Below the pieces are notes generated by a model that was given only the letters and a program-made list of their open reading frames with translations, was not told the DNA's origin and did not search any database. The translations under genes were made by a program, and so were the position numbers. Shown here piece after piece: positions 14,946 through 52,195 of a DNA stretch of 64,000 nucleotides. The DNA is taken from positions 4,869 to 68,868 of the forward strand of contig CAZVKJ010000004.1 of NCBI GenBank assembly GCA_964626855.1. Direction: 5' to 3'. Source of the stretch: an uncultured Bacteroidales bacterium (GTDB lineage Bacteria; Bacteroidota; Bacteroidia; Bacteroidales; CAIWKO01). Every line of letters begins with the position of its first letter. Position 1 is the first letter of the stretch.

Positions 14946-14970
14946 AGACAGAAAAACGAGCTGCTAACAA

Positions 14971-15047: not shown

Positions 15048-15078
15048 CAGCCGTTTGCGGCAATTGTAGAAAAATCTA

Positions 15079-15776: not shown

Positions 15777-16077
15777 TACTACCTTGGCTATGTTCATATA
15801 AAATGTACATCGGAAATCATTGTCCCAAATATTTTTATGCCAAATGGTTATGAGAATAATGATAAATTTTAGGTTAATTCAAACATTATCATTATTTTTA
15901 ATGGTATCATTTTTAATTGCCGAAGTACACGATTGGACTGATACGGGCAGGGGATGAAATGGCAGAATAAATGAAAGCAGGCAGGCAAGTGATGGAACGT
16001 ATTATTACGTTAATATTGACCAGGGTAATGATGGAAAAAGTCGGAATTTGCAGGGAATATTCACCTTGTTAAGGTAA
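15777..16077 (+). pseudogene. degraded remnant of a T9SS type B (gliding-motility-associated) C-terminal domain
   Basis: Translation gives ...KCTSEIIVPNIFMPNGYENNDKF* (in-frame TAG at 15870). After a frame change it continues DWTDTGRG*NGRINESRQASDGTYYYVNIDQGNDGKSRNLQGIFTLLR* (stop at 16075-16077). This parallels the intact C-terminus of the next gene (IFIPNAFTPNHDGRNETF...GWDGKNSG...GVYVYMV...KERGIVNLIR). No upstream body of the gene remains. Confidence 0.6.
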
Positions 16078-16082
16078 CAGAA

Positions 16083-19000
16083 ATGAAAAAAGTATTGTTC
16101 AGCGGATTTTGCATAATTATTTTTTCTTTTTGTCTTTGGCTCATTTCCTTTGACCGTGTTGTTGCCCAATGCAGCATTGAGGCATGTCCTGATATTACTT
16201 TTTGCCCGGGAGCATCTGCACAACTGGTGGCTTCAGGAGGGGTAAGTCCGGGCAGCTATACCTGGTCGCCATCAACAGGATTGAACAGCACTACAATTTA
16301 TAATCCTGTCGCAAGCCCGTTAGTCACAACTACCTATTATGTCACAGGCAACGGCACATTAGGCAACGTAATTATCAACGGCGATTTTTCACAGGGAAAC
16401 ACAGGCTTTTCCTGTAATTATAATTATAATTCTAATCTTGTTCCCGAAGGAAATTATTATGTCGGTACAAATCCTCATACCTTTCATGGCGGATTTGTCA
16501 ATTTTTATGATCATACCAGCGGATCAGGAAATATGATGATTGTTAATGGTGCGGGTGTGCCTAATACCAATGTGTGGTGCCAGACGGTGCCTGTTACACC
16601 AAATACGGATTATGATTTTGCGACATGGGCCTGCAATGTAAGTAATTCGGGAAGTCCGGCACTGTTGCAATTTTCAATTAATGGCCAACCACTTGGGTCA
16701 ATATTTTCCGTGAATGCTGTGACCTGCATCTGGAATCAGTTTTTTGCAATTTGGAATTCGGGAAGTAATACTACTGCTACCATTTGCATTGTTAATCAGA
16801 ATACAACACTGGTGGGCAATGACTTTGCCCTTGACGATATATTGTTTGCACCGGTATGCTATGGAATAGATTCGGTTACAGTCTTTGTTGACCAGGTAAA
16901 CATTTCGGCAAGTCCTGCCAATCCGGCTATTTGTCCGGGGCACTCTGTAACGCTTTCTGCTTCGGGTGCAAGCACCTATACATGGATTCCGGGGAATACG
17001 CCCGGCTCCACTGTTGCCGGAGCTCAGATCACCGTTTCTCCTGTTACAACTACCATCTACACGATAACGGGTACAGATGCTATTGGGTGTACCGGCTCAA
17101 CAAGCGTTACCGTCAATGTCGGTTATCCGGTTATATCAGGCGTTCTTTCTGTTTGTACAAATTCATCGACTCAGCTTGCCGGAACTGGCCAGCCGGCTGT
17201 TTCAGGCGCCTGGGTATCCTCAAACACCGGTGTTGCTTCAGTAAATAATTCAGGTATGGCCATTGGTGTTTCAGCCGGTACAAGTATTATAACCTATACC
17301 GACATTGCGGGTTGTACGGCAACGGCAACGCTGACTGTTAACACAACACCTTTAGTAGTAGCTCTTTCAAATGTTTTTGTGTGCGACAGCGGCACGGTCG
17401 CCGCGACAAATTTTACCAGCAATCCACCCGGAGGAGTATTTTCGTGGACAAATTCCAATACAACTATCGGGCTGGGAGCGGGGGGTACGGGAAACATCCC
17501 CTCGTTTACGGCAATAAATAACACATCCTCACCAGCAAACGTAATAATTACAGTTGTTTCTACCCTGAACAATTGTACAGGCCCTCCTTCTGCCTATACC
17601 ATTACCGTATACCCATCGCCTAACGTCAATGCCCCGGTAGATATTGATGTTTGCGATGGTACCCTGATGTTGGCATCAACATTTAACGGCCCGCTACCGG
17701 GGACAACATTATCATGGACAAACAGTAATACGGCTGTCGGGCTTCCGGCAGGAGGTTCCGGCGACGTGCCGCAATTTAATGCAACGAATGCCGGTACAAC
17801 ACCTGTATTGGCCACCATCGTTGTAATTCCCACTGGAAATGTTTGCACAACTGCCCCTGTTACATACCACCTCACAGTTAATCCCATACCTTCTGTCACC
17901 ATGCCTGCCGATACGTCAGTCTGTCATGGTGCAATTGTCGGCGCTTCAATATATACAGGTACTGTGGCTGGAACAACATTTACATGGACAAATTCAAATG
18001 CGTCAGTAGGCCTTGCAGCCAGCGGCATTGGAAATGTGCCTTCATTTACAGCCATAAATACGGGAAATATCCCTGTTGTGGCCAACATCACAGTTACTCC
18101 TGCCGCCAACAATTGCACCGGAATACCTTCCGTATATAGCATCATTGTGAGTCCGGCACCCCTGATAACCTTTTCTTCCTTGCCGCAACTTTGTATTTCT
18201 TCGCCACCCTTGTCGCTTACACACGCGATACCGGCTGGAGGTATTTATTCTGGCGCCGGCGTCACCGGGAATATCTTTGATCCTTCGGTTGCAGGCATTG
18301 GAATGCATACCATATCATACACTTATACGGATACAAATAGCGGTTGTAGCAATACAGGCACAACACAGATTGTGGTCACTGATGGGTTATCAATTTCGGT
18401 ATCGCCTGAAAATCCTTTTATTTGTGAGGGCAACAGTATTATACTGCATGCTTCGGGAGCATCATCGTTCACATGGCAACCTGTTACTGGTTTATCTTCC
18501 AGCCTGGGCGATCAGGTTATTGCATCACCTGCAATGACCACTGTTTATACTGTTCAGGGCAGTAATCCTGATGGTTGTGCAGGTTCAGCTACAGTGGCCG
18601 TTGGAATATATAATGTGCCTGTATTGGCTGTTACGTCTTTTCCCAAAGAAGGATGCAGCCCGCTAAAGGTGAATTTTGGCTATGTGCCTATTGGGCCCAT
18701 CGATACCAACACCATGTATTGGAATTTCGGTGATCTTTCTTCATCAGAAAATTCATCTGTTAGAGCATTTCCTGCGCATACGTTTATCAACCAGGGGGAA
18801 TATGCTGTTTATCTGGGCGCACATACAACGGAAGGATGCCCTGTATCGTGCACAGATACCGTGCTTGCTTTTCCGGTTCCGGTGGCTGATTTCTATTATA
18901 ATCCCCCGGTAGCCAGTTTATACGATCCCAAAATAAATTTTATTGACCTGTCTGCAGACGGCACTTCCTGGTTATGGGATTTTGGTGATCCTGCTTCATT

Positions 19001-19415
19001 TAATAGTAACAGCTCAAACCTGCAGAATCCTGTTCATACTTTCAGCGATTCTGGTTCATTCCTGGTGCAGCTCATTGTATACAGTGATAATAGCTGTTCC
19101 GATACTATAGAAAAGCCCATCAGGATTTATCCCGAGATCATCATTTTTATCCCAAATGCGTTCACTCCAAATCACGACGGGCGCAACGAAACGTTCAGAC
19201 CAATAATCACTGGAATTGATAAAGAAGGTTACCTGTTTTATATTTTTGACCGGTGGGGGAAAATGGAGTTTAATACCAGTGATCCGCAGGAAGGCTGGGA
19301 CGGCAAGAATAGTGGCCGGGAATGCGAGATGGGAGTATATGTATACATGGTTGCATATCGTAGTATGACGGGTAAAGAATTTAAAGAAAGAGGTATTGTA
19401 AATTTGATCAGATAA
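16083..19415 (+). CDS. large T9SS type B cargo / adhesin-like protein with repeated Ig/PKD-like domains
   Basis: 1110-aa ORF with an N-terminal signal/TM segment. Three ~90-aa repeats (aa ~430-700) share the pattern C..G....A..F...P..G..F.WTNSN...GL.A.G.G..P.F.A.N. PKD-like segments (WNFGD, WDFGD) are present. The C-terminal IPNAFTPNHDGRNETF...GWDGK...GVYVY...VNLIR is the gliding-motility C-terminal domain. Confidence 0.8.
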   Translation: MKKVLFSGFCIIIFSFCLWLISFDRVVAQCSIEACPDITFCPGASAQLVASGGVSPGSYTWSPSTGLNSTTIYNPVASPLVTTTYYVTGNGTLGNVIINGDFSQGNTGFSCNYNYNSNLVPEGNYYVGTNPHTFHGGFVNFYDHTSGSGNMMIVNGAGVPNTNVWCQTVPVTPNTDYDFATWACNVSNSGSPALLQFSINGQPLGSIFSVNAVTCIWNQFFAIWNSGSNTTATICIVNQNTTLVGNDFALDDILFAPVCYGIDSVTVFVDQVNISASPANPAICPGHSVTLSASGASTYTWIPGNTPGSTVAGAQITVSPVTTTIYTITGTDAIGCTGSTSVTVNVGYPVISGVLSVCTNSSTQLAGTGQPAVSGAWVSSNTGVASVNNSGMAIGVSAGTSIITYTDIAGCTATATLTVNTTPLVVALSNVFVCDSGTVAATNFTSNPPGGVFSWTNSNTTIGLGAGGTGNIPSFTAINNTSSPANVIITVVSTLNNCTGPPSAYTITVYPSPNVNAPVDIDVCDGTLMLASTFNGPLPGTTLSWTNSNTAVGLPAGGSGDVPQFNATNAGTTPVLATIVVIPTGNVCTTAPVTYHLTVNPIPSVTMPADTSVCHGAIVGASIYTGTVAGTTFTWTNSNASVGLAASGIGNVPSFTAINTGNIPVVANITVTPAANNCTGIPSVYSIIVSPAPLITFSSLPQLCISSPPLSLTHAIPAGGIYSGAGVTGNIFDPSVAGIGMHTISYTYTDTNSGCSNTGTTQIVVTDGLSISVSPENPFICEGNSIILHASGASSFTWQPVTGLSSSLGDQVIASPAMTTVYTVQGSNPDGCAGSATVAVGIYNVPVLAVTSFPKEGCSPLKVNFGYVPIGPIDTNTMYWNFGDLSSSENSSVRAFPAHTFINQGEYAVYLGAHTTEGCPVSCTDTVLAFPVPVADFYYNPPVASLYDPKINFIDLSADGTSWLWDFGDPASFNSNSSNLQNPVHTFSDSGSFLVQLIVYSDNSCSDTIEKPIRIYPEIIIFIPNAFTPNHDGRNETFRPIITGIDKEGYLFYIFDRWGKMEFNTSDPQEGWDGKNSGRECEMGVYVYMVAYRSMTGKEFKERGIVNLIR

Positions 19416-19465
19416 ATATTGATAAAAATATTTACCCGATTTAACCTGTCTTATTCATACCCAGT

Positions 19466-19573
19466 TGTTCGAAGTTTGCACCATAGGTGCTCCTACGGAG
19501 TAACTTCGAACTTATAATACCAAATTGAAATATCAATTAGTCCAATAGGACGTATTGATATTTCTCATTTGGT
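19466..19573. other. two compound (nested) hairpins downstream of the adhesin gene
   Basis: The first (19466-19510) is GTTCGAAGTT...AACTTCGAAC enclosing GCACCataGGTGC and TCCtacGGA. The second (19519-19573) is ACCAAAT-GAAATATCAAT-(GTCCaataGGAC)-ATTGATATTTC-ATTTGGT. They may act as terminators or be REP-like elements. Confidence 0.4.
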
Positions 19574-19959
19574 TATGCCGATGGTTAAAATAAATAGTGC
19601 AAACGAGGGAAACGAAGTTTGGACTATATTATTTTTCCAATCGGTATAAAATGTAGTTTGCAACTATAATCATGCATTACCGGTCGTTACTTTTTTTACA
19701 TACAAACAGGTAATCGTGCGCATATTAAAGCTGAATAAACTAAGCCATTATATTCAGAAAAAGTTTCCGGGAAGGAAATAATATTTTTAAAAAGAAATAA
19801 TATTTATATTTGTTTGTATAAAAGGGAACAGCATAAAGCTACCTGGCTGAAGACCGTGAATAGGAGCATACAAAGGTAAAGCTGGAAATAAGTTTCCGGT
19901 AATATTTCGTAGTTAGACAGACAGTAGACGGACAGACACAATTTAAGAATAATAGAGCC

Positions 19960-20301
19960 ATGCTACACATGAATCCAGAATCTTACAGTGAAACAAAAGT
20001 TAAACTTTTGTTGATTTACTATTTTAGTTTTGGAGTCTATGCAATTCCGCCAATTTGTATAGTTCTCTTCTTTCTTAATGTTTGTGAGACCTCAATATAT
20101 TTCTGGTTGACATTTTTGCTTGGTACTCTTCCTTGTGCTTTTGTAGGCACAATTCTTTTTTTTATAGGCTGGAAAATCTCAATCAAGAGAAATATCAGAA
20201 AAAACATCACCGTTGGAATGCTTGGGACAATATTTGGAATAATGGGAATCATTATTGGAGTTGCACTTTGGGGACTATTTTACTTGGTAGTTGGAAGCTA
20301 G
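19960..20301 (+). CDS. small hypothetical membrane protein
   Basis: 113-aa ORF with 3-4 hydrophobic segments. No other support. Confidence 0.35.
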   Translation: MLHMNPESYSETKVKLLLIYYFSFGVYAIPPICIVLFFLNVCETSIYFWLTFLLGTLPCAFVGTILFFIGWKISIKRNIRKNITVGMLGTIFGIMGIIIGVALWGLFYLVVGS

Positions 20302-20654
20302 TTTATGATTGACTTGACACACAAACTGACATTGATAAAAATAAATACTACCGCTAATAGGGCTATAAAAGCAAATCTCTATTATTTGAGGAACATGAAA
20401 ATGAGGGCAGCTCGTTTATTTTTTATTCATCAAACTGGCTACCGTTTATTTTGGGTTTACAGCTAATGGTAAAGCCCTCGGGGATAACTTTTGACCCAAT
20501 TTTTTCTTCGAGGTCGGTCTTTTTTGTGATTGGGAATTCGACCTGGCATTTTCATATACCGGTTCCGCAGGTTTTTTTAACGATAAAGGAATCTTATCAA
20601 ATTGAAATTACGGCGTGGATAAAATTTATACTGTTTTACCTCAGTGAGTTTTTA

Positions 20655-22758: not shown

Positions 22759-22839
22759 TTCAAAAAATCATTAATGCTTACAATAAAATAATTGATTATC
22801 TTTAACCAAAAAGGTCACCCCCAAATAAAAACCATAATC

Positions 22840-23307
22840 ATGAAACCTGGCAATTTCACACAATTACAAATTCAAATGGTTTTTGCAGTTAAAAACCGTG
22901 AAGCACTTTTGCACAAAGATTTCAGAATACGTGTCTTTGAATACATGAGTGGGATACTCAGAGAAATGAAGCACAAATCCATTATTATAAACGGAGTTTC
23001 GGACCACGTTCATGTTTTTTTAGGCCTGAATCCTGCGTTATCAATTTCTGATACTGTACATGAATTGAAACGGAGTTCTTCAATTTTTATTAAAGAAAAC
23101 AAATTGTGCAAAAGTAAATTCTCATGGCAGGAAGGCTATGGTGCATTTTCTTATAGCAAATCTCAGGTTGAGAAAGTATACAATTATATTCAAAACCAGG
23201 AAGCTCATCATAAAAGAAAAACATTTAGGGAAGAGTATCTTGAGTTTCTGGACAAATATGAAGTTATATATGATGAACGGTTTCTTTTTGAATTCTTTGA
23301 CCTATAA
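22840..23307 (+). CDS. REP-associated tyrosine transposase (RAYT; IS200/IS605 TnpA-like Y1 HUH enzyme)
   Basis: Start moved to ATG 22840 (MKPGNFTQLQIQMVFAVKNRE). HUH motif in SDHVHVFLG and catalytic-Tyr region WQEGYGAFSYS. 155 aa. Flanked on both sides by cognate hairpin repeats. Confidence 0.8.
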   Translation: MKPGNFTQLQIQMVFAVKNREALLHKDFRIRVFEYMSGILREMKHKSIIINGVSDHVHVFLGLNPALSISDTVHELKRSSSIFIKENKLCKSKFSWQEGYGAFSYSKSQVEKVYNYIQNQEAHHKRKTFREEYLEFLDKYEVIYDERFLFEFFDL

Positions 23308-27610: not shown

Positions 27611-29539
27611 CTATTTGCAAATTTCTTTGATGACCTGTCCGGCTGTCGGGTTACCCAGCTCAAATGATTTGTGCCAGTCTTCGCATGCGCCTGTGGTATC
27701 GCTTACATTGAGGCGGGTGAGTCCCCTGTTGAACAGTACCACATTATCCCGGGGATTAAATTTTAGTGCGGTGCTGTAATCGTCGATGGCGCCATGATAA
27801 TCCTTCATCATGGCCCTGATATTGGCTCTGTTGCTGAATGCTTCGCCATCATTGGGCTCGAGGCTGATGGCCTTGTTTACGTCGTTGAGGGCGCCATTGA
27901 GGTTGCCGATGGTTGCTTTCAAAACGCCACGGTTATTATATGCTTTTTGAAGTTCTGGGTTGAGAGCAATGGCTTTATTATAGTCTTTGAGAGCGGCAGC
28001 CGTGTCTCTCAGCCCGTCGAAAGCCATGCCCCGGTTGTTAAAAGCTTCGGCAACGGTATCGTTTAATTTAATGGAAAGGTTCAGATCCTGCAGGGCGGCC
28101 TGGTAATCCTTAAACTCAATGAGAACATGGCCGCGGTTGGTGAGGCACTGGTCAAACAACGGATATAGTTGCAGCGTTTTATTGTAATCCTGCAATGCTC
28201 CCTGGTAATCTTTTTGCTCATTCTTATAATTTCCACGCATCCAGTATGGGAGGTAATTTTCCGGATATTTTTTTATAATATCTGTAAACAGCGTATTTCC
28301 GTCTTTCCATACTTTGGTTCTTTCCCATGTTAGAAAAGACATGATCATCACAAACACGATGCTTAGAAAAACGGCATTTTTTTTAACAGATTCTTTCTGG
28401 ATACCCGAAATCCACTGGCCGGCGATAAAAAACAAACCGATATAGGAAACATAGCTGTATCGCTCGGCAGTGATGGCATTACCCACTGAAATAATCTGCA
28501 GCATGATGGAGATTACGACCAGGAAAAATGAAACGCCAAATATTTTCTCACGCAACAGCTTTGTCTTTCTGATGGTCAGCCAGATCAACAAAAGGAGGAG
28601 CGGCAGTGAAGCATAATAATACCAGGGTAAAAAGGCACTTTTTACGTCGGGGTAATAGTGCATGGCAGAAAGCTTGAAAGGCGCAATGACCTTTACAACA
28701 TAGAAGACTATCGTATAAGTGAACATGAAGATCCGGTCAACGATGCTGTAATAAGAAATATCCTTCATGGCTCCCTGCTGCGAAAATAAAGCCAGGACGC
28801 CGAATAACAGCGCCGGTAATACAAAGGGAATTTTTTCAATGACAATCTTTGCATTGATTTTTCTTCTTTTATAAATATCGATAGCGATCATGATCACAGG
28901 AAGTGTAACGGCAGCTGATTTCGATAACAGTGAAAGTATGAAAAGAAACAGGCTGATCCAATAGAACTTTTTCTTTTGATCCGCTTCAAGATATTTTGAA
29001 TATAATAGCAGCGCTCCAAGATAAAACACCGTATACAGCACATCCTTGCGCTCCGAAATCCAGGCCACCGATTCTACGTGCATGGGATGCAATGCAAATA
29101 ATGCCGAAACAAGCAATGCTGAAAAACGTTGGCCGCTTAATTTCTCAATCAGCTTGTAAACCAGAAATGTATTTATTAAATGAAGTATTAAATTAAAAAG
29201 GTGGAATGGAAACGGATTTTGCCCGTAAATATGCTTTTCAAAGAAAAAAGTAAGCGTAGTTAAGGGATGGTAATTGCCAACATAAAAGGTCGAAAAAATA
29301 TCCTTTACCGAGTTGAAGTTAAATTCCTTGATATATGGGTTTTTAACGATGTAATCAGTATCATCAAGGCTGGCAAAACCATTAAACAGAGAACCTGCAT
29401 ATGCAATGGCCGTAAGTACAATGATGGCATAAATCGTCCAGGGTGGAAACTGCAATGATTTTTTTTGCACTGGAGTATTTTTAGAAATCTTGTGATTCTG
29501 CGGCTTTGCAGGTATTTTTTTCTCAGGCTTGTTAGCCAT
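27611..29539 (-). CDS. TMTC-like GT-C membrane glycosyltransferase fused to TPR repeats (paralog 1 of 5)
   Basis: 642 aa. K-rich cytoplasmic tail and ~10 TM segments. Loop-1 LDD motif (ASLDDTDY). DUF1736/PMT_2-like signature HPMHVESVAWISERKDVLY. About 6 C-terminal TPRs ending in CEDWHKSFELGNPTAGQVIKEICK. Confidence 0.7.
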   Translation of the reverse strand: MANKPEKKIPAKPQNHKISKNTPVQKKSLQFPPWTIYAIIVLTAIAYAGSLFNGFASLDDTDYIVKNPYIKEFNFNSVKDIFSTFYVGNYHPLTTLTFFFEKHIYGQNPFPFHLFNLILHLINTFLVYKLIEKLSGQRFSALLVSALFALHPMHVESVAWISERKDVLYTVFYLGALLLYSKYLEADQKKKFYWISLFLFILSLLSKSAAVTLPVIMIAIDIYKRRKINAKIVIEKIPFVLPALLFGVLALFSQQGAMKDISYYSIVDRIFMFTYTIVFYVVKVIAPFKLSAMHYYPDVKSAFLPWYYYASLPLLLLLIWLTIRKTKLLREKIFGVSFFLVVISIMLQIISVGNAITAERYSYVSYIGLFFIAGQWISGIQKESVKKNAVFLSIVFVMIMSFLTWERTKVWKDGNTLFTDIIKKYPENYLPYWMRGNYKNEQKDYQGALQDYNKTLQLYPLFDQCLTNRGHVLIEFKDYQAALQDLNLSIKLNDTVAEAFNNRGMAFDGLRDTAAALKDYNKAIALNPELQKAYNNRGVLKATIGNLNGALNDVNKAISLEPNDGEAFSNRANIRAMMKDYHGAIDDYSTALKFNPRDNVVLFNRGLTRLNVSDTTGACEDWHKSFELGNPTAGQVIKEICK

Positions 29540-29568
29540 AATATCTATTTATTTAAAAATTCATCACA

Positions 29569-29576
29569 CAAATGTA
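29569..29576 (-). promoter_or_regulatory. candidate -7 promoter box (TACATTTG)
   Basis: Matches TAnnTTTG on the minus strand, 30 nt upstream of the start at 29539. Confidence 0.4.
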
Positions 29577-29673
29577 CAAAAACAATAATCATCTTCTTAT
29601 ATGTTCCCCGTGACATCAGGGCGGCAATCAAACTGATGAAATTCAGATTTGTGACTGTATTCAAAGTGCGATA

Positions 29674-31596
29674 TTATTTATTACAAATCTGTTTTACAAA
29701 ATCAGCCGCCGGTGCGTATCCGAGATCAAGGGCTTTATGAAAGTCTTCGCAGGCACCGTCTATATCTTTAAGGTTAAACTTGGTATTAGCACGGTTGAAG
29801 TAAGCTATCTTGTCTTTTGGATCGATGGTTAAAACTTTATTGCAATCTTCGATAGCTCCATTATAATCCTTGAGCAGGTTCTTTATTCCGGCCCTGTTGC
29901 GGTATGCTTCGCTGTCATTAGGATCCAGGCTGATGGCTTTATTCATATCCTCAAGTGCACCCTGGGTATTTCCCATACTGAATTTCAGCACCGCCCGGTT
30001 GGTGTATCCTTTCGATAACTTTGGATTAAGTTTAAGGGCTTTGTTAAAGTCGCGCAGCCCGGCAGCCGAATCGCCCAACTGGGCATAGGCCATGCCGCGG
30101 TCGCTGTATGTTTCGGCAACCGTAGAGTCTATCTGTATTGACTGAGTCAGGTCACGCAGTGCATTCTGATAATCGTTAAAACCTTTGAGAAGCACCTTCC
30201 CGCGCGCTGCAAGGCTTGGCGCATATTTCTGGAACAACTGTATCGACTTGTTATAGTCGTTCAGTGCATTCTGGTAATCGTTACGCTTATAATAAATATT
30301 GCCACGCATCCAGTAAGCAGGATATCTGTCAGGATATTTTTTTACCACATCATTGAAAAGTACTACACCGTCTTTCCATACACCGATACGGTCCCAGGCA
30401 ACAACAGAATAAACGATGATCAGAAACCAATACCCGAACAAGATCGTTTTTTGAAGGGATTTTTTCTGAATTCCCGCTATCCATTGTCCTGCAATATAAA
30501 ACAACCCGAAGTAGGCGACGTAGGAGTAGCGTTCCGAAGTGATGGTATCGCCGACAGAAATAAGCTGAAGCATGATGGAGATCGCGATGAGAAAGAAGAA
30601 CATCCCGAAAAGCAATTCCCGCCTGAGCGCCGAACGCCTTATGACAAGCCATGCCACCACCAGCAGGAAGGGCACCGAGGCATAATAATACCATGGCAGC
30701 ATATCGCTGTTGGGGTAATAATGCATAACAGACATATGGAAAGGGGCAATAAGCTTGACGATATAAAATGAAACAGAATAGGATAGCATGAATATCCTGT
30801 CAATGAACGAAAATGAGGTGGATACTTCTTTCATCGCGTCCTGTTGTGAGAGAATGGCCAGTATGCCGAAAAGCACGGAAAGGGCCAGGAATGGTACTTT
30901 TTCGAGGAACATCCTTACATTGAGTTTTCGGCTTTTATAGAGGTCAAACACGATGAGGATTACCGGAAGGGTGACGGATGCCGATTTTGATAAAAGAGAG
31001 AGTATAAAAAGTATCAGGCAAATGAAGTAGTATTTGATTTTATAATCTTTCAGGTACAACAGGTATACAATCAATGCCGCTAAGTAAAACATGGTATAAA
31101 GCACATCCTTGAGTTCTGCCGTCCAGGCCACGGATTCCACGTGCATGGGATGAATGGCAAACAGCAGTGAAACGATCAGTGCCGTAAGGCTTTTTCCGCT
31201 TAATTTCTCGGCAAGTTTGTACACAAGAAAAATGTTTACCAGGTGAAACAACACATTTATGATATGATAGGGCATCGGATTAAAGCCGAACAGGCTGTAT
31301 TCGATCATGTAGGTCAGTAATGTCAGCGGAAAATAGTTGCAGTCATAAAATGAAGAAAAGATAATCTTTATAGTATCAAAGCTTAAATTCTTGCTGTAAG
31401 GATTATTAAATAGATAGATATCGTCATCAAGGTTGACAAACCCATTCAAAAATGACCGCAAATATATTATTACTGTAAAAGCCAGAACGGCATAAATGGC
31501 CCAGTGAGGTACCTGTAATGTGTTACTCTGCAGGCTGCTCTTTTTTTGAGGCTTTTGCTGTACGGTGTTTTTTTTATTCTGTTGCTTTACGGCCAT
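29674..31596 (-). CDS. TMTC-like GT-C glycosyltransferase-TPR fusion (paralog 2 of 5)
   Basis: 640 aa. VNLDDDIY, HPMHVESVAWTAELKDVLY, C-terminal TPRs, and a CEDFHKALDLGYAPAADFVKQICNK tail. Confidence 0.7.
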   Translation of the reverse strand: MAVKQQNKKNTVQQKPQKKSSLQSNTLQVPHWAIYAVLAFTVIIYLRSFLNGFVNLDDDIYLFNNPYSKNLSFDTIKIIFSSFYDCNYFPLTLLTYMIEYSLFGFNPMPYHIINVLFHLVNIFLVYKLAEKLSGKSLTALIVSLLFAIHPMHVESVAWTAELKDVLYTMFYLAALIVYLLYLKDYKIKYYFICLILFILSLLSKSASVTLPVILIVFDLYKSRKLNVRMFLEKVPFLALSVLFGILAILSQQDAMKEVSTSFSFIDRIFMLSYSVSFYIVKLIAPFHMSVMHYYPNSDMLPWYYYASVPFLLVVAWLVIRRSALRRELLFGMFFFLIAISIMLQLISVGDTITSERYSYVAYFGLFYIAGQWIAGIQKKSLQKTILFGYWFLIIVYSVVAWDRIGVWKDGVVLFNDVVKKYPDRYPAYWMRGNIYYKRNDYQNALNDYNKSIQLFQKYAPSLAARGKVLLKGFNDYQNALRDLTQSIQIDSTVAETYSDRGMAYAQLGDSAAGLRDFNKALKLNPKLSKGYTNRAVLKFSMGNTQGALEDMNKAISLDPNDSEAYRNRAGIKNLLKDYNGAIEDCNKVLTIDPKDKIAYFNRANTKFNLKDIDGACEDFHKALDLGYAPAADFVKQICNK

Positions 31597-31641
31597 AACT
31601 ATGGGTTTTACATTACAAACTTTAATTGAATATTTCTGTTG

Positions 31642-33585
31642 TCATTTGCAATAATACTGTAAATATTCCGATGCCTGCTTATTACCCAAAGATTGTGCAG
31701 TACGCCAGTCGTTGCAGGCATCGCTGGTTTTTCCCATTCTGTATTTACATGATGCAGCACTTACGAGGGCATTTGAATTTGAGGGGTTGATTTTATAGGC
31801 AGTTTCAAAATCATTGCATGCCTGTTCAAATTTATTTTCTTCGAAGTAGGTCTGCCCCCGGTTTTCATATGATTTATCATCTCTGGCATTTAAGCTGATT
31901 GCCTGGTTAAAACACTGTATTGCGCTCTGGTAATCTTTTTTTGATCTGAGGGCAATGCCTTTATTGTAATATGCAACATTGTGTTCATGATTTATGCGTA
32001 GTGCGTGGTCATACTCAGCGATGGCCCTGTCAAAATCTCCTTTGGTGTAATAAATGATCCCGCGGTTTGTATAACAAATAAAATAGGTTGAATCCACTTC
32101 AATGGCTTTATTGTAATTTTCAAGTGCACGGTCAATATCATTCAACCTGTAATAGCAGTTGCCACGGTTACAATAGGTGATGGCAAATTTGTGGGGAAAC
32201 TTGACGCTTAAGGCTTTATTATAATCTTCGAGAGCCCCCTGTATGTCATTGTTGTACGTCTTTGCATTACCTCTTGCCATATAAGCATGGCCGTAATCCG
32301 GGTATTGGCTGACGATTTTATCAAAAATGGTTACGCCGTCTTTCCAGGTTTTATTTTGCTCCCAGCTGATCACCGAAAATATGATGCAGGCCAAAATGGA
32401 AATGACCAGTGCAGTTGTGCCTTTCACAGGTTTTGCAGCGCCGGGCATTCCGGCAATAAACCAGCCAATGCAGATAAAAAAACCAACGTGGCCCAGGTAA
32501 ACATATCGTTCAGCAACAATGGCATAGCCTACAGGGATCAGTTGTAACATCAGCGCCATGGAAATAATGAAAAACATGCCTCCATAAAAAATATACGGCC
32601 TCTTTTTGTATTGCAGAATTATCATGACAACCAAGGCAATTACAACAGGAAGGCTGGCATAAAAATACCATTGCATCCCATTTCCGGGATAATAATGCAT
32701 GGCAGCAAGCCCGAAAGGGACGATGGTTTTGATGATATAATAGAGCAGGGCATAGGAAGCAATAAATATCCTGTCGAAAAAGGTATAAACAGACACCGTT
32801 GATTCATTTAATGCTTTTTGCCCGGCCTGAGCATAAATGGTTACAATACCTATTGCAATAGCAAGAAGTAAATATGGAATTTTTTCGAGCCATGCAATTT
32901 TGGTCATGGGCCTTTTCAGAATATAATCTGTCAGCAATAAAATGAATGGAAATATCACTCCTGTAGACTTTGAAAGCAACGACAGGAGAAACAGGAAGAA
33001 GGCAATGATGTATCCCGATTTTTTCAGTTTGCCTTGTGCATAAAACGAATAAACGATCATGCCTGCCATGAAGAAGAAGAAGAACAATACGTCTTTTCTT
33101 TCGGTGACCCAGGCAACGGATTCAGTATGCATGGGGTGAACGGCAAATAGCAGTGCAACAACAAAAGAGGCTGTGTTATTTTTTAAAATTATTCGGGCGA
33201 AATAAAAAACAAGTAAAACATTAATAGCATGTAATAATATGTTTTCGGTATGGAAAGCCGTTGGGTTCATGCCAAACAGGGCAAAATCAATTCCAAGCGA
33301 GAGTAAGGTTAAGGGATGGTAATTTCCCAGGTTGTATTGATTAAAATAGTTGAGGAAATTCTGCCAGTTCAGTTGCTGAACCATGGAGTTATCTAGCAGG
33401 TACATGTTATCATCCCAGTTGTTGGCCAGCCCGTTGGTATAGGCTTTGGCGTATACCACCAGCGTTATAATTACCAACAGGGCAGGTAAGATGATGGCCT
33501 GAAAGTTTAGTTCCTTTTTTGAATTTTTACCAATTGATTTAGAATTACTCTTGTTTTTATTTTTCTCTTTTGTACGTTTATCCAT
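31642..33585 (-). CDS. TMTC-like GT-C glycosyltransferase-TPR fusion (paralog 3 of 5, most divergent)
   Basis: 647 aa. NNWDDNMY, HPMHTESVAWVTERKDVLF, TPRs, and a CNDWRTAQSLGNKQASEYLQYYCK tail. Confidence 0.7.
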   Translation of the reverse strand: MDKRTKEKNKNKSNSKSIGKNSKKELNFQAIILPALLVIITLVVYAKAYTNGLANNWDDNMYLLDNSMVQQLNWQNFLNYFNQYNLGNYHPLTLLSLGIDFALFGMNPTAFHTENILLHAINVLLVFYFARIILKNNTASFVVALLFAVHPMHTESVAWVTERKDVLFFFFFMAGMIVYSFYAQGKLKKSGYIIAFFLFLLSLLSKSTGVIFPFILLLTDYILKRPMTKIAWLEKIPYLLLAIAIGIVTIYAQAGQKALNESTVSVYTFFDRIFIASYALLYYIIKTIVPFGLAAMHYYPGNGMQWYFYASLPVVIALVVMIILQYKKRPYIFYGGMFFIISMALMLQLIPVGYAIVAERYVYLGHVGFFICIGWFIAGMPGAAKPVKGTTALVISILACIIFSVISWEQNKTWKDGVTIFDKIVSQYPDYGHAYMARGNAKTYNNDIQGALEDYNKALSVKFPHKFAITYCNRGNCYYRLNDIDRALENYNKAIEVDSTYFICYTNRGIIYYTKGDFDRAIAEYDHALRINHEHNVAYYNKGIALRSKKDYQSAIQCFNQAISLNARDDKSYENRGQTYFEENKFEQACNDFETAYKINPSNSNALVSAASCKYRMGKTSDACNDWRTAQSLGNKQASEYLQYYCK

Positions 33586-33708
33586 TTTGGTTTTCTTTAA
33601 TCGAAAAAACTATCATTATTTAATTTATATATGCATCTTATATGTGCATCCTGATTTGTGCCAGGGATTCAAGGTGCCTTAATAAAGAAATACGATTGAG
33701 CTACATCA

Positions 33709-35649
33709 TTATTTACAATATTTTTTTATCATGTCACCTGCATTTTGGTCGCCGAGGTTTAGCGCGCTGTTCCAGTCTTCGCAGGCGCCGCTTGTATCAC
33801 TGGTATTCAGTCGTGCCATTCCCCGGTTGAAAAACAATTGGTTGTCGTCAGGCTTAAGTTGGAGCGCCGCGTTGTAATCATTGATGGCTCCCCGGTAATC
33901 TTTTATTAATGTTTTTATATTGGCACGGTTGCAATAACTGTTGCTTTCTTTTGGATTCAGCAATATTGCTTTATCAGCATCTTCAATGGCTCCCGAAATG
34001 TTTCCCATGATGGCTCTGAGAATGCAACGGTTATTGTAGGCGCTTTGCATTTTCGGATCCTTTTTTATGGCTTTGTTAAAATCGCGTAATGCAGCAGCAG
34101 TATCATTCATGCCCTGGTAAGCCATGCCCCTGTTGTTGAAGACATCGGCTGCAGTAGTATCCATTGTCAATGATTTATTAAGGTCAGCCAGTGCCGCCTG
34201 GTATTGTTTTTTGTCGATAAGGATTTTACCACGACTTGCAAGGCATTCATTGATGTTGGGGTTTAATTGCAATGCCATATTAAAATCTTGTAATGCCCCA
34301 TCATAATCTTTCAGTTCATTTTTGAAAAACGCTCTTGTTTTGAATGCTACCGGGCTTTCCGGGTATTTTTTTACCACATCGTCGAACAACGTGATGCCAC
34401 TTTTCCAGACACCAATCCTGTCCCAGGTTAAATAGGAGAACATTAAAATAAAGATTCCACTCACAATCATAGCAAGTTTCAAACGTTCCGGCCTCTGAAT
34501 TTTCGAGATCCAATGGCCAATGATAAAGAAAGTGCCGATGTACGAGACATAGGTGTACCGTTCTGAAGTTATGGCTACTCCTACAGAAATAACCTGGAGC
34601 ATGATGGATATCACGATAAGGAAAAATGCCGTGCCGAATATTTTTTCACGCCGCATCCGGGAAGGTTTTACAATAATAAAGATGATAAATAACAAAAATG
34701 GCAGTGATGCAAAGAATTCCCACGGCAGGGTATTGGTCGCAAACTTATCGGGATAATAGTGCATGGCCGATAAGTTGACGGGCGCAATCATCATGATGAT
34801 GTAATAAGAGATTGTATACGTAAATAAGAAAATACGTTCAAAGACCGTATAAAACGGGGTAAAGTCCGACAATGATTCTTCCTGGGAAAACAGGGCAATA
34901 ATTCCAAAAAGCAAGGATAACAGGAAGAATGGAACTTTTTCGGCAAACAATTTAACGCTGAACTTTCTTTTCTTATAAATATCGATAGCCAGCATGATCA
35001 CCGGAAGAGTCACGGAAGCTGATTTAGAAAGAAGTGATAAAATAAACAGCAGTATGCAAACCCAATAATATCTCGCCTTGAAGTTAAATCCGGATTTCAT
35101 GAAATTAAGGTATGCTGTCAATGCACCTAAATAAAAGACGGTATACAGCACATCTTTTCGTTCGGCAATCCAGGCCACGGATTCAACATGCATGGGATGA
35201 ACCCCGAATATGGCCGCAACAAATACAGCAGTAAATTCCTGCCCACTAAGCTTTTTGATAAAAAGGTAGACGAGAAAGACATTGGCAAGATGGAGCAACA
35301 TATTGAGCAGGTGATATGGAAACGGATTTAATCCGAACAAGCGGTATTCAAAAAGATAGGTGAGCATCGACAACGGCTGGTAGTTCCCCACATAGAATGA
35401 CGAAAAAATTGTTTTAATCCCGTTAAAACTGAAATCCATGATGTCTTTATTCTTACACACGTAACCATCATCATCCCAGGTAACAAAACCATTGAACAGC
35501 GATCTTAGATAAATTACTGCTGTGAGCGTAAGTACTGCATAAATGGCCCATGGAGGAATCTTCCAGGCCTTTTTTTGTACTCCTGTCACCGGGGTGGCGG
35601 GAGCTTTTTTTACTTGAATTTGCTTTTTATATTTTGGTTTTTCTGCCAT
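33709..35649 (-). CDS. TMTC-like GT-C glycosyltransferase-TPR fusion (paralog 4 of 5)
   Basis: 646 aa. VTWDDDGY, HPMHVESVAWIAERKDVLY, TPRs, and a CEDWNSALNLGDQNAGDMIKKYCK tail. Confidence 0.7.
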   Translation of the reverse strand: MAEKPKYKKQIQVKKAPATPVTGVQKKAWKIPPWAIYAVLTLTAVIYLRSLFNGFVTWDDDGYVCKNKDIMDFSFNGIKTIFSSFYVGNYQPLSMLTYLFEYRLFGLNPFPYHLLNMLLHLANVFLVYLFIKKLSGQEFTAVFVAAIFGVHPMHVESVAWIAERKDVLYTVFYLGALTAYLNFMKSGFNFKARYYWVCILLFILSLLSKSASVTLPVIMLAIDIYKKRKFSVKLFAEKVPFFLLSLLFGIIALFSQEESLSDFTPFYTVFERIFLFTYTISYYIIMMIAPVNLSAMHYYPDKFATNTLPWEFFASLPFLLFIIFIIVKPSRMRREKIFGTAFFLIVISIMLQVISVGVAITSERYTYVSYIGTFFIIGHWISKIQRPERLKLAMIVSGIFILMFSYLTWDRIGVWKSGITLFDDVVKKYPESPVAFKTRAFFKNELKDYDGALQDFNMALQLNPNINECLASRGKILIDKKQYQAALADLNKSLTMDTTAADVFNNRGMAYQGMNDTAAALRDFNKAIKKDPKMQSAYNNRCILRAIMGNISGAIEDADKAILLNPKESNSYCNRANIKTLIKDYRGAINDYNAALQLKPDDNQLFFNRGMARLNTSDTSGACEDWNSALNLGDQNAGDMIKKYCK

Positions 35650-35758
35650 AGTTTATTCGATAACATTACGATGTCAACCAATAATTTATAAAGTTATAAC
35701 GATGTAAGTAAATAATTCCGGAATGCATAATACATAGATATGATTCGATCATAAATCA

Positions 35759-37684
35759 TCATTTGTTACAAATAAGATTAATCATATTTTCTGCATTCTT
35801 GTCACCAAAGCTTAATGACTTATGCCATTCCTCGCATGCACCTGAAGTGTCATTTACATTCAATTTTGCCATGCCCAGGTTGAACATCACCTCATTATCT
35901 TTTGGTTTGAGCCTGAGAGCGGCGTTATAATCTTCAATAGCTCCAGGGTAATCTTTTTGCAGGGTTTTGATGTTTGCCCTGGTGCAATAGCTGACACTTT
36001 CCTCGGGGTCTATACTGATGGCTTTGTTTACATCTTCAATAGCTCCCGGGATATTTCCCATGATGGCTTTCAGGATGCTGCGGTTGTTATAGGCGTGATA
36101 CATATCAGGGGTCATACTGATGGCTTTATTAAAATCACGCATGGCGCCTGATGTATCATTAAGCCCCTGGAGTGCCATACCCCGGTTATTAAAGGCGTTG
36201 GCCTTGGAAGAATCGAGATCAATAGCCAGGTTCAGGTCATTGAGCGCATTTTTATAGTCTCTGAATTCTACCAGAACACTGCCGCGTGTAACCAAACAAT
36301 CCTGGAACAAAGGGTTTAATGAAAGCGCTTTGTTGCAATCCTGAAGTGCTCCCTGGAAATCATCATGAGATTTTTTAAAAATAGCCCTGGTGTTATATCC
36401 GTCTGGATTGTCGGGGTATTTTTTCACCACATCATCAAAAAGAGTAAAACAACTGTCCCAGACTTTTATCCTGTCCCAGCTAAGGTATGAAAACATGATC
36501 AGAAATAATGCGCTTACCACAAGCATAAAACGTTTCAGGGTGGGCTTCGGTATTTGCACAATCCATTGCCCGGCAATATAAAATAACCCGATATATGAAA
36601 TATACGAGTATCGTTCTGCTGCAATGGCATTGCCCACCGAAATGATCTGAAGCATGATGGAAATTACGATAAGGAAAAAGAAAACGCCGAAGAGCTTTTC
36701 GCGACGCAAGCTTGTTTTTCTTACCAGCCACACCACAAGCAGCAGTAAAAACGGAAGCGCCGCATAAAACATCCAGGGTAATGATTTGCCATGGGTCAAA
36801 GGATAATAATGCATGGCGGATAATTTGAATGGCGCAACAAGCTTGACAATATAAAACGACAGTGTATAACAGAAATAAAAAAATTTGTCGATAATAGAGG
36901 TGGAGGCTTCACCCCGCGCTTCTTTTTGTGAAAGCAAGGCAATGATTCCAAATAATAATGCCAGGGCAAAAAACGGGATTTTTTCTACAAGCATTTTTGC
37001 ATTGAACTTCCTGTTTTTATATAAATCCATTGCAATCATCAGCACAGGCAGTGTTACCGCGGCCGATTTAGAGAGCAATGATAAAATAAACATGAACAGG
37101 CAAATCCAGTAATGTTTCCATTTTAGGCCTGATGTAAGATAGTTTACATAAGCGATCAATGCTGCCAGGAAAAACAATGAGTACATCACATCTTTACGCT
37201 CAGCAACCCAGGCTACCGATTCAACATGCAAGGGGTGTAATGCAAACATAGCTGCCGCAAATAACGCCGTAAACCTTTGTTCACTCAACTTTTCAACAAA
37301 TTTGTAAACAAGAAATGTATTGACCAGGTGAAGAAATACGCTCGTAAAATGATAGGGAAGGGGGTTCAGCCCAAAAAAACGGTATTCAAAAAAGTAAGTC
37401 AACATGGTGAGCGGCTGATAATTGGCCACATAGTAAGAAGAGAATAATGTTTTTATGCCTTCAAAACTGAAATTCCTGATGTCGAAGTTCTTGGTAACGT
37501 AACCACTGTCGTCCCATTCTACAAATCCATTGAATAAAGCCTGTGAATAAACCAGGGCCGTGATAACTAGTACTGCATATATTGCCCAGGGAGGAACCGG
37601 AATGGTTTTTTTTTGAAAATTATTTTTCAGGGAAATGGTCTTTTGTGGAATAGTTTTCTTTTTATTGCTGGGTTTAGCGGGCAT
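35759..37684 (-). CDS. TMTC-like GT-C glycosyltransferase-TPR fusion (paralog 5 of 5, first in transcription order)
   Basis: 641 aa. VEWDDSGY, HPLHVESVAWVAERKDVMY, TPRs, and a CEEWHKSLSFGDKNAENMINLICNK tail. Confidence 0.7.
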   Translation of the reverse strand: MPAKPSNKKKTIPQKTISLKNNFQKKTIPVPPWAIYAVLVITALVYSQALFNGFVEWDDSGYVTKNFDIRNFSFEGIKTLFSSYYVANYQPLTMLTYFFEYRFFGLNPLPYHFTSVFLHLVNTFLVYKFVEKLSEQRFTALFAAAMFALHPLHVESVAWVAERKDVMYSLFFLAALIAYVNYLTSGLKWKHYWICLFMFILSLLSKSAAVTLPVLMIAMDLYKNRKFNAKMLVEKIPFFALALLFGIIALLSQKEARGEASTSIIDKFFYFCYTLSFYIVKLVAPFKLSAMHYYPLTHGKSLPWMFYAALPFLLLLVVWLVRKTSLRREKLFGVFFFLIVISIMLQIISVGNAIAAERYSYISYIGLFYIAGQWIVQIPKPTLKRFMLVVSALFLIMFSYLSWDRIKVWDSCFTLFDDVVKKYPDNPDGYNTRAIFKKSHDDFQGALQDCNKALSLNPLFQDCLVTRGSVLVEFRDYKNALNDLNLAIDLDSSKANAFNNRGMALQGLNDTSGAMRDFNKAISMTPDMYHAYNNRSILKAIMGNIPGAIEDVNKAISIDPEESVSYCTRANIKTLQKDYPGAIEDYNAALRLKPKDNEVMFNLGMAKLNVNDTSGACEEWHKSLSFGDKNAENMINLICNK

Positions 37685-37715: not shown

Positions 37716-37723
37716 CAAATGTA
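37716..37723 (-). promoter_or_regulatory. candidate -7 promoter box (TACATTTG) for the TMTC-like array
   Basis: Matches TAnnTTTG on the minus strand, 32 nt upstream of the start at 37684. Confidence 0.4.
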
Positions 37724-37830: not shown

Positions 37831-37874
37831 TGAAAAAGAGGCTGTTTCACGGTGATTGTCCGGGGAACAGCCTC
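37831..37874 (-). terminator. rho-independent terminator downstream of the AOR gene
   Basis: Perfect 10-bp stem, AGAGGCTGTT (37836-37845) with AACAGCCTCT (37865-37874), and a 19-nt loop. On the minus strand the stem is followed by TTTTTC. Confidence 0.6.
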
Positions 37875-37906
37875 TGATGAGTGATAAATTGGTACTGAAA
37901 TGATGC

Positions 37907-40208: not shown

Positions 40209-42134
40209 CTATGTATTCATGAAAAGCAAAAACTCTTCGTTGGTCTGGGTGAATTTCATTTTATCTTTGAGAAATTCCATAGCTTCCACGGGATTCATGT
40301 CGGCCAGGTGGTTTCGCAGAACCCAGATACGTTGCAGCGCTTCTTTTTCATGAAGCAGGTCGTCGCGGCGTGTGCTGGATGCTACAATATCGATAGACGG
40401 GAAAATACGTTTATTGGAAAGTTTTCGTTCGAGCTGGAGCTCCATATTGCCGGTTCCTTTAAATTCTTCGAAAATTACTTCGTCCATTTTGGAGCCGGTT
40501 TCGGTAAGCGCTGTTGCAATGATGGTAAGGGAGCCTCCGTTTTCGATCTGTCGTGCAGCGCCGAAAAACTTCTTTGGTTTTTGCAGTGCTGAGGCTTCAA
40601 CACCTCCGGATAAAACTTTTCCGGATGCCGGTGCCACGGTGTTGTATGCACGAGCCAGGCGTGTGATGGAATCGAGTAATATCATAACATCATGTCCGCA
40701 TTCAACAAGGCGTTTTGCTTTTTCAAGAACAATATTGGCGATTTTTACATGCCTGTCGGCGGGTTCATCAAAGGTAGATGCAATAACTTCAGCGTTGACA
40801 CTGCGCTGCATATCGGTTACTTCTTCCGGGCGTTCATCAACAAGCAGAATGATCAGATAAACTTCCGGATGATTATAAGCAACGGCATTTGCAATTTCCT
40901 TCAGGATCATGGTTTTACCTGTTTTAGGTTGAGCGACGATGAGGCCGCGCTGGCCTTTACCTATAGGCGTAAAAAGGTCAATGATGCGGGAGGTGATGGT
41001 CATTTGCGGATGACCTGTAAGTTTTAGTTTCTTTTCTGGGAATAGCGGTGTGAGATGGTCAAAGTTCACGCGGTCACGCACCTGCTCAGAGCTAAGGCCA
41101 TTGATATGTTCCACTTTGATAAGCGGAAAATACTTTTCGCCTTCTTTAGGCGGACGAATTTTGCCCCTGACAGTATCGCCGGTTTTTAGTCCGAACAGCT
41201 TGATCTGCGATTGTGAAACATATATATCATCTGGTGAATTCAGGTAATTATAATCTGATGAGCGCAGGAAGCCATAACCGTCGGGCATAATTTCGAGTAC
41301 GCCCTCACAGGATACAATGCCTTCGAAGTCGAAGGAATATTCCGGTTGTTTTTCCCGCTGCGGGCGGTTTTTAAATTGGTTATCCCGCTGATAACGTTCC
41401 TGGTCCATAGGTTTGGACTCTTCAGTGGCTGTTGCCTCATCTTTAACGACGTTTTCCGGTACTGATTTATTCTCTGTATCTGCAGGAGTTTCAGGAGTGT
41501 TTTCTTTTTCCGCGGCAACGGCTTCCTGTTTTTCATCATAAGGATGCTGCGGAATCCGGGCAACGGGTTCTTCGTCATCAAAGGAAGGTAGCAGAAAATC
41601 GAATTTTTTTGCTTCTTCCTGAAAGAGTTCTTTTTTGTAGACCTTGTCTGGATGTGATTCCGGCTTTTCCGTCTGGGGTTCCTGTACTTTTTGTTCTTCG
41701 GTTTTAAAAAGAATTTTAGGTTGTTGTTCCCGGATTTTATGTTCTCTTTTATGTTCCTGTTGTTCAGGTTTTTCTTTTGAAGCGGGTTTGTCGAATCCTT
41801 TATTTTTGGGGAAATTGTTTTGGTCTTTTTGTTTTTTTTCAAAAACCTTTACCGGTTCAGCCGGTTTAGGTTGCTCGCCAGTAGCTTGTTGTTGTTTCAT
41901 TTCCGGGTTTTCAATGCGAGTACGCCTTTGGGCGATCTTTCTCCGGTTTTTTCCGTTTTCTTCATGGCTTTTTTCTACCGGCTTGTTTATATCTGGTTTA
42001 ATAGCCTGGATGTCAAGAATTTTGTGTATGAGGTCCTTTTTGCGCAGGTCTTCGTAATCGGGAACATTAAGTTTTTCGGCAATTTCCTGCAATTCAGGAA
42101 TAGTCATACCATTCAGGTCAATAATATTATACAT
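40209..42134 (-). CDS. rho: transcription termination factor Rho with long low-complexity N-terminal insertion
   Basis: 641 aa. N-terminal helix bundle ([31 protein letters not shown]). A ~220-aa K/E/P/Q-rich insertion at aa ~45-268. CSD-like RNA-binding region ([14 protein letters not shown]). Walker [17 protein letters not shown]-terminal RIFPSIDI. Confidence 0.92.
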
Positions 42135-52174: not shown

Positions 52175-52195
52175 AGACTTTTAAATGGTTTCTAA

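Follow-up and report, generated by a model that had tools for sequence, protein, structure and literature searches.

The TMTC1-4 proteins of animals (CAZy family GT105) are protein O-mannosyltransferases of the endoplasmic reticulum that take dolichyl-phosphate mannose as donor and act on extracellular cadherin (EC) domains; they are medically important in humans, through cobblestone lissencephaly and hearing loss. In TMEM260, another human enzyme built on a membrane-embedded glycosyltransferase core of the GT-C type, an aspartate of loop 1 is essential, and a ladder of Asn residues in the tetratricopeptide repeats (TPRs) recruits the acceptor peptide in extended form, ladder mutants keeping about 10% of the activity. 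In humans each of these enzymes, TMTC1-4 as well as TMEM260, has Ig-like domain clients of its own, which it supposedly selects by way of its TPRs. We analyzed a stretch of 64,000 nucleotides from an uncultured Bacteroidales bacterium (contig CAZVKJ010000004.1, hereafter the window), in which a preliminary description had pointed out five tandem genes on the minus strand, here called c1 to c5, as TMTC-like GT-C enzymes fused to TPRs. Comparisons of sequences and models indicate that the five encoded proteins are true homologues of the TMTCs that form a distinct bacterial subfamily and are not their orthologues.

Relation of the five genes to animal TMTCs

The open reading frame (ORF) listing bears out five consecutive intact genes on the minus strand that encode proteins of 640-647 amino acids and lie 45-134 bp apart (134, 45, 123 and 109 bp from c1 towards c5). 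Gene c1 (27611-29539, 642 amino acids) encodes a predicted membrane domain (28307-29539) followed by a predicted periplasmic domain of six TPRs (27611-28306), with the codons of its motifs at 29360-29365 (DD), 29072-29089 (HPMHVE) and 28457-28468 (AERY). The paralogue c2 (29674-31596, 640 amino acids) has its membrane domain at 30376-31596, its TPRs at 29674-30375, DD at 31423-31428 and HPMHVE at 31135-31152; c3 (31642-33585, 647 amino acids), identified as a divergent paralogue by pairwise identity, has the corresponding domains at 32344-33585 and 31642-32343, DD at 33409-33414 and HPMHTE at 33121-33138. In c4 (33709-35649, 646 amino acids) the membrane domain lies at 34405-35649, the TPRs at 33709-34404 and DD at 35470-35475, and in c5, the first gene of the array (35759-37684, 641 amino acids), at 36458-37684, 35759-36457 and 37508-37513 respectively, with HPLHVE at 37220-37237. 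All five were taken from the ORF listing, the coordinates of c1 being verified, and c1, c2, c4 and c5 were assigned by their homology to TMTCs.

To compare the five proteins with TMTCs, we used a published alignment that holds the N-domains of animal TMTC1-4 as well as rows for ArnT, STT3B, PglB and Pmt1 (PMC7801869, supplementary file 2). In a BLASTP search with the database size set to 1e8 residues, c1 to c5 each matched 12 of the 12 TMTC N-domains (E-values from 1e-8 to 1e-17, 24-38% identity), and none of them matched ArnT, STT3B, PglB or Pmt1. An HHalign comparison of the bacterial transmembrane (TM) alignment, built from 27 sequences, with the TMTC alignment gave a probability of 99.9% (E-value 7e-32, 25% identity) over 376 columns, that is, over the whole domain, while the controls (ArnT 1.1%, Pmt1 0.2%, STT3B and PglB) all stayed below 2%, being single sequences and therefore of less power. 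The same profile alignment runs without gaps through all 11 TM segments of the TMTCs.

Residue by residue, the acidic pair D52/D53 of TMTC1 corresponds to D59/D60 of c1, and DD is kept in all 66 relatives; the preliminary description had named a loop-1 acidic pair as the catalytic motif of GT-C enzymes. TMTC1 D169 corresponds to c1 D166 (64/66 relatives), K219 to K207 (66/66) and R404, the arginine of the AER motif in external loop 5 (EL5), to R360 (66/66); the HPxHTE motif of the EL2 loop is found as H151, P152, H154 and E156 of c1, in close to 66 of the 66 relatives. The counterparts of D59/D60, D166, K207 and R360 are unchanged among the five copies, and every catalytic motif or residue is intact in each of them, c3 included.

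The preliminary description had likened the proteins to TMTCs through a combination of PMT_2, DUF1736 and TPRs. The TMTC-specific homology and the TPRs stand, but the Pfam part has to be narrowed: DUF1736 matched no copy at E-values up to 10, isolated membrane domains included, and PMT_2 exceeded its gathering cut-off of 26.1 bits only in c2 (40.0) and c3 (34.4), going unreported for c1, c4 and c5. Pfam scans of the five copies also returned no MIR domain and no match to Wzy_C, the domain of O-oligosaccharyltransferases of the PglL/PilO type (whole proteins or TM domains, E-values up to 10), and NCBIfam yielded only TPR families below threshold. In the HHalign alignment the DNP motif of EL4 falls on non-conserved residues and the DW motif on a gap, so that both are absent; the divergence of this segment accounts for the missing DUF1736 match. 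The bacterial EL1 is 9 residues shorter than in TMTCs, and the His-Lys of its SHKSYRP motif (TMTC1 H89/K90) aligns to a variable V/G, only Y-x-P-L being retained.

The layout reported for the five copies could be confirmed in most respects. Each has a lysine-rich N-terminal tail, with 6-10 Lys and Arg among the first 30 residues; the loop-1 strings SLDDTDY, NLDDDIY, NWDDNMY, TWDDDGY and EWDDSGY and the signature HP[ML]H[VT]ESVAW..E[RL]KDV are literal matches in 5/5; and the estimate of about six C-terminal TPRs agrees with the AlphaFold2 (AF2) model and the Pfam matches (TPR_1, 82-126 bits in 5/5 copies), which give six repeats plus a capping helix. A multi-helix membrane domain is likewise present, although its helices, counted as about ten, are better given as 11. 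The conserved C-terminal cysteine pair is real, as C-x21-C in every copy, but the pattern first written for it was one residue off and matches none of the five; its two cysteines are kept in 64/66 and 62/66 relatives.

An AF2 model of full-length c1 was built on 66 homologues (pLDDT 90.2, pTM 0.85). With this model Foldseek returned only TPR proteins and was uninformative for the membrane domain, hence a second, TM-only model (pLDDT 89, pTM 0.91). All of its matches with a probability of ~1.0 are GT-C enzymes (STT3, PglB, AglB, Pmt4, Pmt1/2, ArnT, AftD, DPY19, EmbB), with the best TM-scores for Pmt4 (0.58) and STT3B (0.57) and with ArnT at rank 21, and the GT-C relationship first proposed is upheld by this confident match to GT-C enzymes alone. 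In sequence searches of the PDB, TPR proteins crowded out all else for the whole-protein profile, and the TM-only profile matched no solved structure; neither these searches nor Foldseek returned a TMTC chain among solved structures.

For the charge count, the helices of the model were assigned as in TMTC and ArnT. Lys and Arg amount to 21.2 in 69 predicted cytoplasmic residues (net charge +17.7), against 9.1 in 149 residues of predicted periplasmic loops (net -2.5). This positive-inside bias supports a topology of 11 TM helices with the N-terminus inside and the C-terminus outside, in which the TPR domain would be periplasmic and the DD loop likewise, and it agrees computationally with the periplasm-facing orientation first suggested. 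The conserved C-terminal cysteine pair is consistent with an oxidising compartment.

Divergence of the copies and distribution of the family

Pairwise comparison places c3 apart, as had been noted from the sequence: it is 34-36% identical to the other copies, whereas c1, c2, c4 and c5 are 51-59% identical to each other, the membrane half being somewhat more conserved between copies than the TPR half. At the DNA level the copies share 60-79% identity across their longest common tracts, and the junction between c3 and c2 is identical in at least 4 independent metagenome assemblies. Together these two observations show the array to be genuine, which settles an objection raised early on, that it might be an assembly artefact, in favour of real and diverged copies. 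Across the array we found neither near-identical DNA tracts nor local inverted repeats, and hence nothing that would point to gene conversion, to a collapsed assembly or to a promoter that can invert. Nonsynonymous divergence (dN) ranges from 0.15 to 0.36 between copies, and every pair, TM and TPR halves included, has a synonymous divergence (dS) that is either saturated or undefined; the combination of such dN with saturated dS indicates purifying selection on all copies.

To locate the differences between paralogues, we compared c1, c2, c4 and c5 over their TPRs, where identity is 0.66 at structural-consensus positions, 0.57 at non-consensus positions of helix B and 0.38 at non-consensus positions of helix A (helix A versus helix B, Mann-Whitney p=6e-4). 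Since helix-A positions line the concave groove, paralogue divergence concentrates on the concave face of the TPR domain, a pattern consistent with the "substrate-diversified battery" of the preliminary description. Repeats 2-6 carry Asn at TPR position 6. At position 7 of all six repeats an Arg stands for the canonical Leu (55-65 of 66 relatives), forming an N-R-[GA] signature. This signature is typical of Hop/Tom70-type TPRs and fits the sub-threshold TOM70 matches; being so common there, it led us to drop the idea of an unusual basic ladder. A search for enrichment of the Bacteroidota O-glycosylation sequon D[ST][AILVMT] in the TPR halves was likewise set aside: only c1 reached nominal significance (p=0.017), the other copies showed no significant enrichment, and c5 lacks the sequon altogether.

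We then counted family members within +/-10 kb in 83 related loci. Tandem copies, two or more, occur in 20 of them, with six copies in 3 loci and four in 2, so the five-fold array, which had been called unusual, lies towards the upper end of a pattern seen repeatedly and is not unique. A metagenome-assembled genome (MAG) of a related Bacteroidales bacterium (locus L001) shares the LemA/DUF2207 synteny and has at least 6 copies in tandem there; a tree built by neighbour joining sets c1, c2 and c5 each beside its positional orthologue from L001, with identities of 70, 70 and 67%. The same tree groups c4 with c5 and L001_3504, as a c5-like duplicate, and leaves c3 outside the whole clade of the other copies. 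In L001 a complete potassium-transport operon, kdpFABC-kdpDE (12243-20377), forms an insertion that parts the array from LemA; the window has a spacer of 64 bp at this point.

A single close relative of c3 was found among 5.8 billion proteins (P0158, 63% identity), and c3 is a rare, deep lineage. In locus L084 (8980-11522) the gene of P0158 is single-copy; a rhomboid protease gene ends 3 bp before it, a CHU_C cargo gene is its immediate downstream neighbour, and a phosphomannomutase-family gene lies two genes upstream of it. Elsewhere in the tree, the copies of L009, L014, L028, L067 and L068 each cluster by their own locus, which implies independent tandem expansions, and the recurrence of these suggests selection for a wider client range. 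Two of the surveyed loci, L013 and L056, belong to different contigs of a single Bacteroidales MAG (CAIVAT01, bin-2870), each with family members, showing that copies can be dispersed as well as tandem and that counts per locus underestimate copies per genome.

An exhaustive profile search retrieved 112,664 clusters at 50% identity with E-values up to 1e-3, including 31,633 with E-values up to 1e-30. Genome matches were mostly from Bacteroidota (Bacteroidales, Chitinophagales, Saprospiraceae, Flavobacteriales, Cytophagales and Sphingobacteriales), with further ones in Omnitrophota, Eisenbacteria, Ignavibacteriales, Chlorobiota, Chitinivibrionales and Synergistia; Bacteroides, Prevotella, Porphyromonas and Tannerella contributed none of the 80 best genome matches. 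NCBI annotates members as "tetratricopeptide repeat protein" and JGI many of them as "protein O-mannosyl-transferase". As the preliminary description had it, bacterial members are uncharacterised: our literature search found no published characterisation of any, and a paper on "tandem genes" of Flavobacterium collinsii proved unrelated. The family is known but uncharacterised and already loosely annotated, and the five genes are ordinary members of it. What is new here is the recurrent partner gene in relatives described below, the concentration of paralogue divergence on the concave TPR face and the rare, deep lineage of c3.

Possible function and alternative explanations

When neighbouring ORFs of the surveyed loci were clustered, the commonest neighbour was a small glycosyltransferase of family 2 (GT2; Pfam Glycos_transf_2). 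Its nearest NCBIfam families, all below cut-off, are AglJ, a Dol-P-hexose transferase family, PpgS and ArnC, which are polyprenyl-phosphate monosaccharide synthases. In 7 of the 83 loci, spread over several phyla, an orthologue of this GT2 (49-71% identity) is encoded no more than 190 bp from a family member. Such adjacency of GT2 and GT-C genes is the classic pairing of a donor synthase with a GT-C enzyme. No flippase or other recurrent third partner was found beside the GT2/GT-C pairs, and close to the pair of locus L074 we noted a rhomboid-like ORF (4373-4987).

On balance we favour the view that the five proteins are periplasm-facing protein O-glycosyltransferases of TMTC-like type, dependent on a polyprenyl-phosphate sugar and differing from copy to copy in their clients. 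A small GT2 encoded elsewhere in the genome would make a polyprenyl-phosphate monosaccharide on the cytoplasmic face of the membrane; the donor would be flipped, and the GT-C domain would move the single sugar to a Ser or Thr of an exported protein. The putative active site comprises the loop-1 DD, the HPxHxE...(R/L)KD loop with the Asp-Lys pair, and the AER arginine. The counterpart of this arginine binds the lipid phosphate in other GT-C enzymes. The acceptor may be held extended in the concave, Asn-lined groove of the six-repeat periplasmic TPR domain, to which the C-terminal helix is probably stapled by a disulfide. As the catalytic residues are all kept and the differences lie mainly in the TPR groove, each of the five copies most likely has its own client proteins, in the manner of TMEM260 and the four vertebrate TMTCs. 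The family as a whole probably transfers single sugars to periplasmic or surface proteins; protein acceptors are likely, and the acceptor, the sugar and the specificity of each paralogue are inferred. With its homology to TMTCs, intact catalytic residues, predicted periplasmic TPRs and a recurrent lipid-sugar-synthase partner, this bacterial branch offers a testable model of how GT-C/TPR enzymes choose their protein clients.

Several observations weigh against this assignment. The 64 kb of the window hold no GT2 donor synthase, no flippase and no obvious client gene, and the literature search turned up no experiment on any bacterial member. The EL4 segment, the proposed binder of donor and sugar in TMTCs, has diverged, and donor and acceptor chemistry may differ accordingly. 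Variability of helix A is generic to TPRs, and the family of 66 sequences shows it too (0.29 vs 0.38). Finally, the TPR matches include the PgaA, BcsC and PilW families, and TPRs also bind polysaccharides or scaffold envelope machines.

Another explanation, which we regard as possible but distinctly less probable, is that these GT-C enzymes use something other than a protein as acceptor, for example lipid A or lipopolysaccharide core, exopolysaccharide, peptidoglycan or a glycolipid; their TPR domain would then dock on an envelope export or assembly machine or bind the polymer, and the paralogues would decorate different glycans. ArnT, AftD and EmbB, whose acceptors are lipids or glycans, are indeed among the fold matches, yet the folds with the top TM-scores are protein-modifying enzymes, and the profile similarity is specific to TMTCs, with none to ArnT. 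The TPR halves resemble modules of PgaA, BcsC, PilW and PrsT, all below cut-off, and the segment that distinguishes TMTCs (EL4/DUF1736) is the diverged one; on the other side, a TPR groove with an Asn ladder binds peptide in TMEM260, and no polysaccharide-export genes flank the array. In the window LpxD lies some 6 kb from the array, and it is found again in the vicinity of family members in 8 loci, but mostly through the synteny of close relatives. Much harder to sustain is the notion of inactive, membrane-anchored TPR scaffolds or chaperones, or of an assembly or annotation artefact, which we consider very improbable. The bare NCBI label and the sub-cut-off PMT_2 scores of 3/5 copies would suit it, whereas the GT-C catalytic and donor-binding residues are unchanged in 5/5 copies and 64-66 of 66 relatives. 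Copies 34-59% identical and free of near-identical DNA tracts also speak against an artefact, as do the same array and synteny in a related MAG, and the c3-c2 junction in at least 4 independent assemblies refutes that part of it.

A further proposal, which we think improbable, makes these proteins the initiating transferases of general O-glycosylation in Bacteroidota, placing the core hexose on D(S/T)X from a polyprenyl-phosphate hexose, with the paralogues sharing out the client proteome. A 2025 review describes the transferase of the core glycan as still undiscovered, likens the pathway to eukaryotic O-mannosylation and concludes that homologues of that machinery are worth seeking; the family, abundant over the classes of Bacteroidota, predicted to face the periplasm and linked to a GT2 that resembles polyprenyl-phosphate-hexose synthases, would answer this description and is a candidate class for the enzyme sought. 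It is, however, also common in Omnitrophota, Eisenbacteria, Ignavibacteriales, Chlorobiota and Synergistia, which are not known for the D(S/T)X system, and Bacteroides, Prevotella, Porphyromonas and Tannerella are missing from the 80 best genome matches. Copy numbers from 1 to at least 6, reached by independent local duplications, suit client-specific enzymes better than a single universal one. The fuller form of the idea, in which TMTC-like enzymes together with a polyprenyl-phosphate-hexose synthase start general O-glycosylation in Bacteroidota and the paralogues partition clients through their TPR grooves, we would put forward only as a long shot; were it true, initiation would proceed as in eukaryotic O-mannosylation and not by en-bloc oligosaccharyl transfer, and the metazoan machinery for cadherin O-mannosylation would be of bacterial origin.

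Surroundings of the array and comparison with described systems

We searched the minus strand around the array for Bacteroidota-type promoter elements. A -7 motif, TACATTTG (TAnnTTTG), lies at 37716-37723, 31 nt upstream of the c5 start, and a second, -7-like TACATTTG at 29569-29576, 29 nt upstream of c1, the background on this strand being 0.58 per kb; none is present in the spacers upstream of c2, c3 and c4. This arrangement tentatively suggests a transcription unit from c5 to c2 and possibly a separate promoter for c1. As read from the spacer sequence, a GC-rich hairpin followed by a T-run (AGAGGCTGTT...AACAGCCTCTTTTT, 37833-37875, minus strand) resembles a terminator and lies downstream of an aldehyde:ferredoxin oxidoreductase gene, between that gene and the array. 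A scan for sigma-70 promoters and terminators gave results at chance level.

Elsewhere in the window, an ORF of 1138 amino acids with no Pfam match (9875-13291, plus strand) lies in an AT-rich island (GC 0.23-0.26 at 10-14 kb versus ~0.40 elsewhere) and may have been acquired horizontally. Three successive ORFs without a Pfam match (297, 240 and 299 amino acids; 51281-54046, minus strand) are also of lower GC (0.31). The array is flanked by DUF2207/LemA genes, and immediately past these comes an IS200-like Y1 transposase gene (Y1_Tnp, 88 bits; 22792-23307, plus strand). Two plus-strand genes encode type IX secretion cargo, Ig-like or beta-propeller surface proteins with PKD and CHU_C (16083-19415) or Kelch and Por_Secre_tail domains (5648-6808); to see in these two the clients of a TMTC-like enzyme would be pure speculation. 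The Rho gene (40209-42134, minus strand) encodes a low-complexity, charged N-terminal extension of ~250 residues ahead of the conserved core, of the kind typical of Bacteroidota Rho.

Two-component systems such as ArnC/ArnT, GtrB/GtrC and Ppm1/Pmt resemble the family in that a small GT2 adjoins its members in the 7 loci mentioned above and in the fold match to ArnT. They differ from the array in that the window holds no GT2 partner, and ArnT (GT83), with which there is no profile match (1.1%), acts on lipid A and carries a C-terminal alpha/beta domain in the periplasm where the window proteins have all-helical TPRs. With the PMT/POMT enzymes (GT39, including actinobacterial Pmt) the window proteins share the GT-C fold, the acidic pair of loop 1 and the logic of a lipid-phosphate-mannose donor, with PMT_2 above its cut-off in c2 and c3 only, but they lack MIR, have TPRs in place of the luminal beta-trefoil and show no profile similarity to Pmt1. 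TfpW of Pseudomonas aeruginosa, to judge from its description (bioRxiv 10.1101/2020.04.19.049825), is alike in joining GT-C and TPR motifs and arabinosylates pilin from a polyprenyl-phosphate sugar; its gene adjoins that of its pilin client, whereas the flanks of the array hold neither a pilin gene nor another obvious client.

TMEM260 (CAZy GT117), the O-mannosyltransferase for IPT domains, also has a GT-C core with luminal TPRs, and its Asn ladder has a parallel in the Asn at TPR position 6 of the window proteins; unlike these it belongs to the DUF2723 family and has an additional Rossmann-like domain with a catalytic base, which is not seen in the AF2 model of c1. Compared with TMTC1-4, the window proteins lack the DUF1736 match, the DNP/DW of EL4 and the His-Lys of EL1, whose loop is shorter; they have only six TPRs and an end helix that is probably Cys-stapled, their genes are in tandem, and in place of dolichyl phosphate their donor would have to be carried on a bacterial polyprenyl phosphate. 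What they have in common with TMTC1-4 is the homologous GT-C domain, the predicted 11-TM topology with the N-terminus inside, the DD of EL1, the LFAxHPxHxE...R.D motif, the Asp-Lys pair, the AER arginine, C-terminal TPRs placed on the non-cytoplasmic side and the presence of several paralogues per genome.

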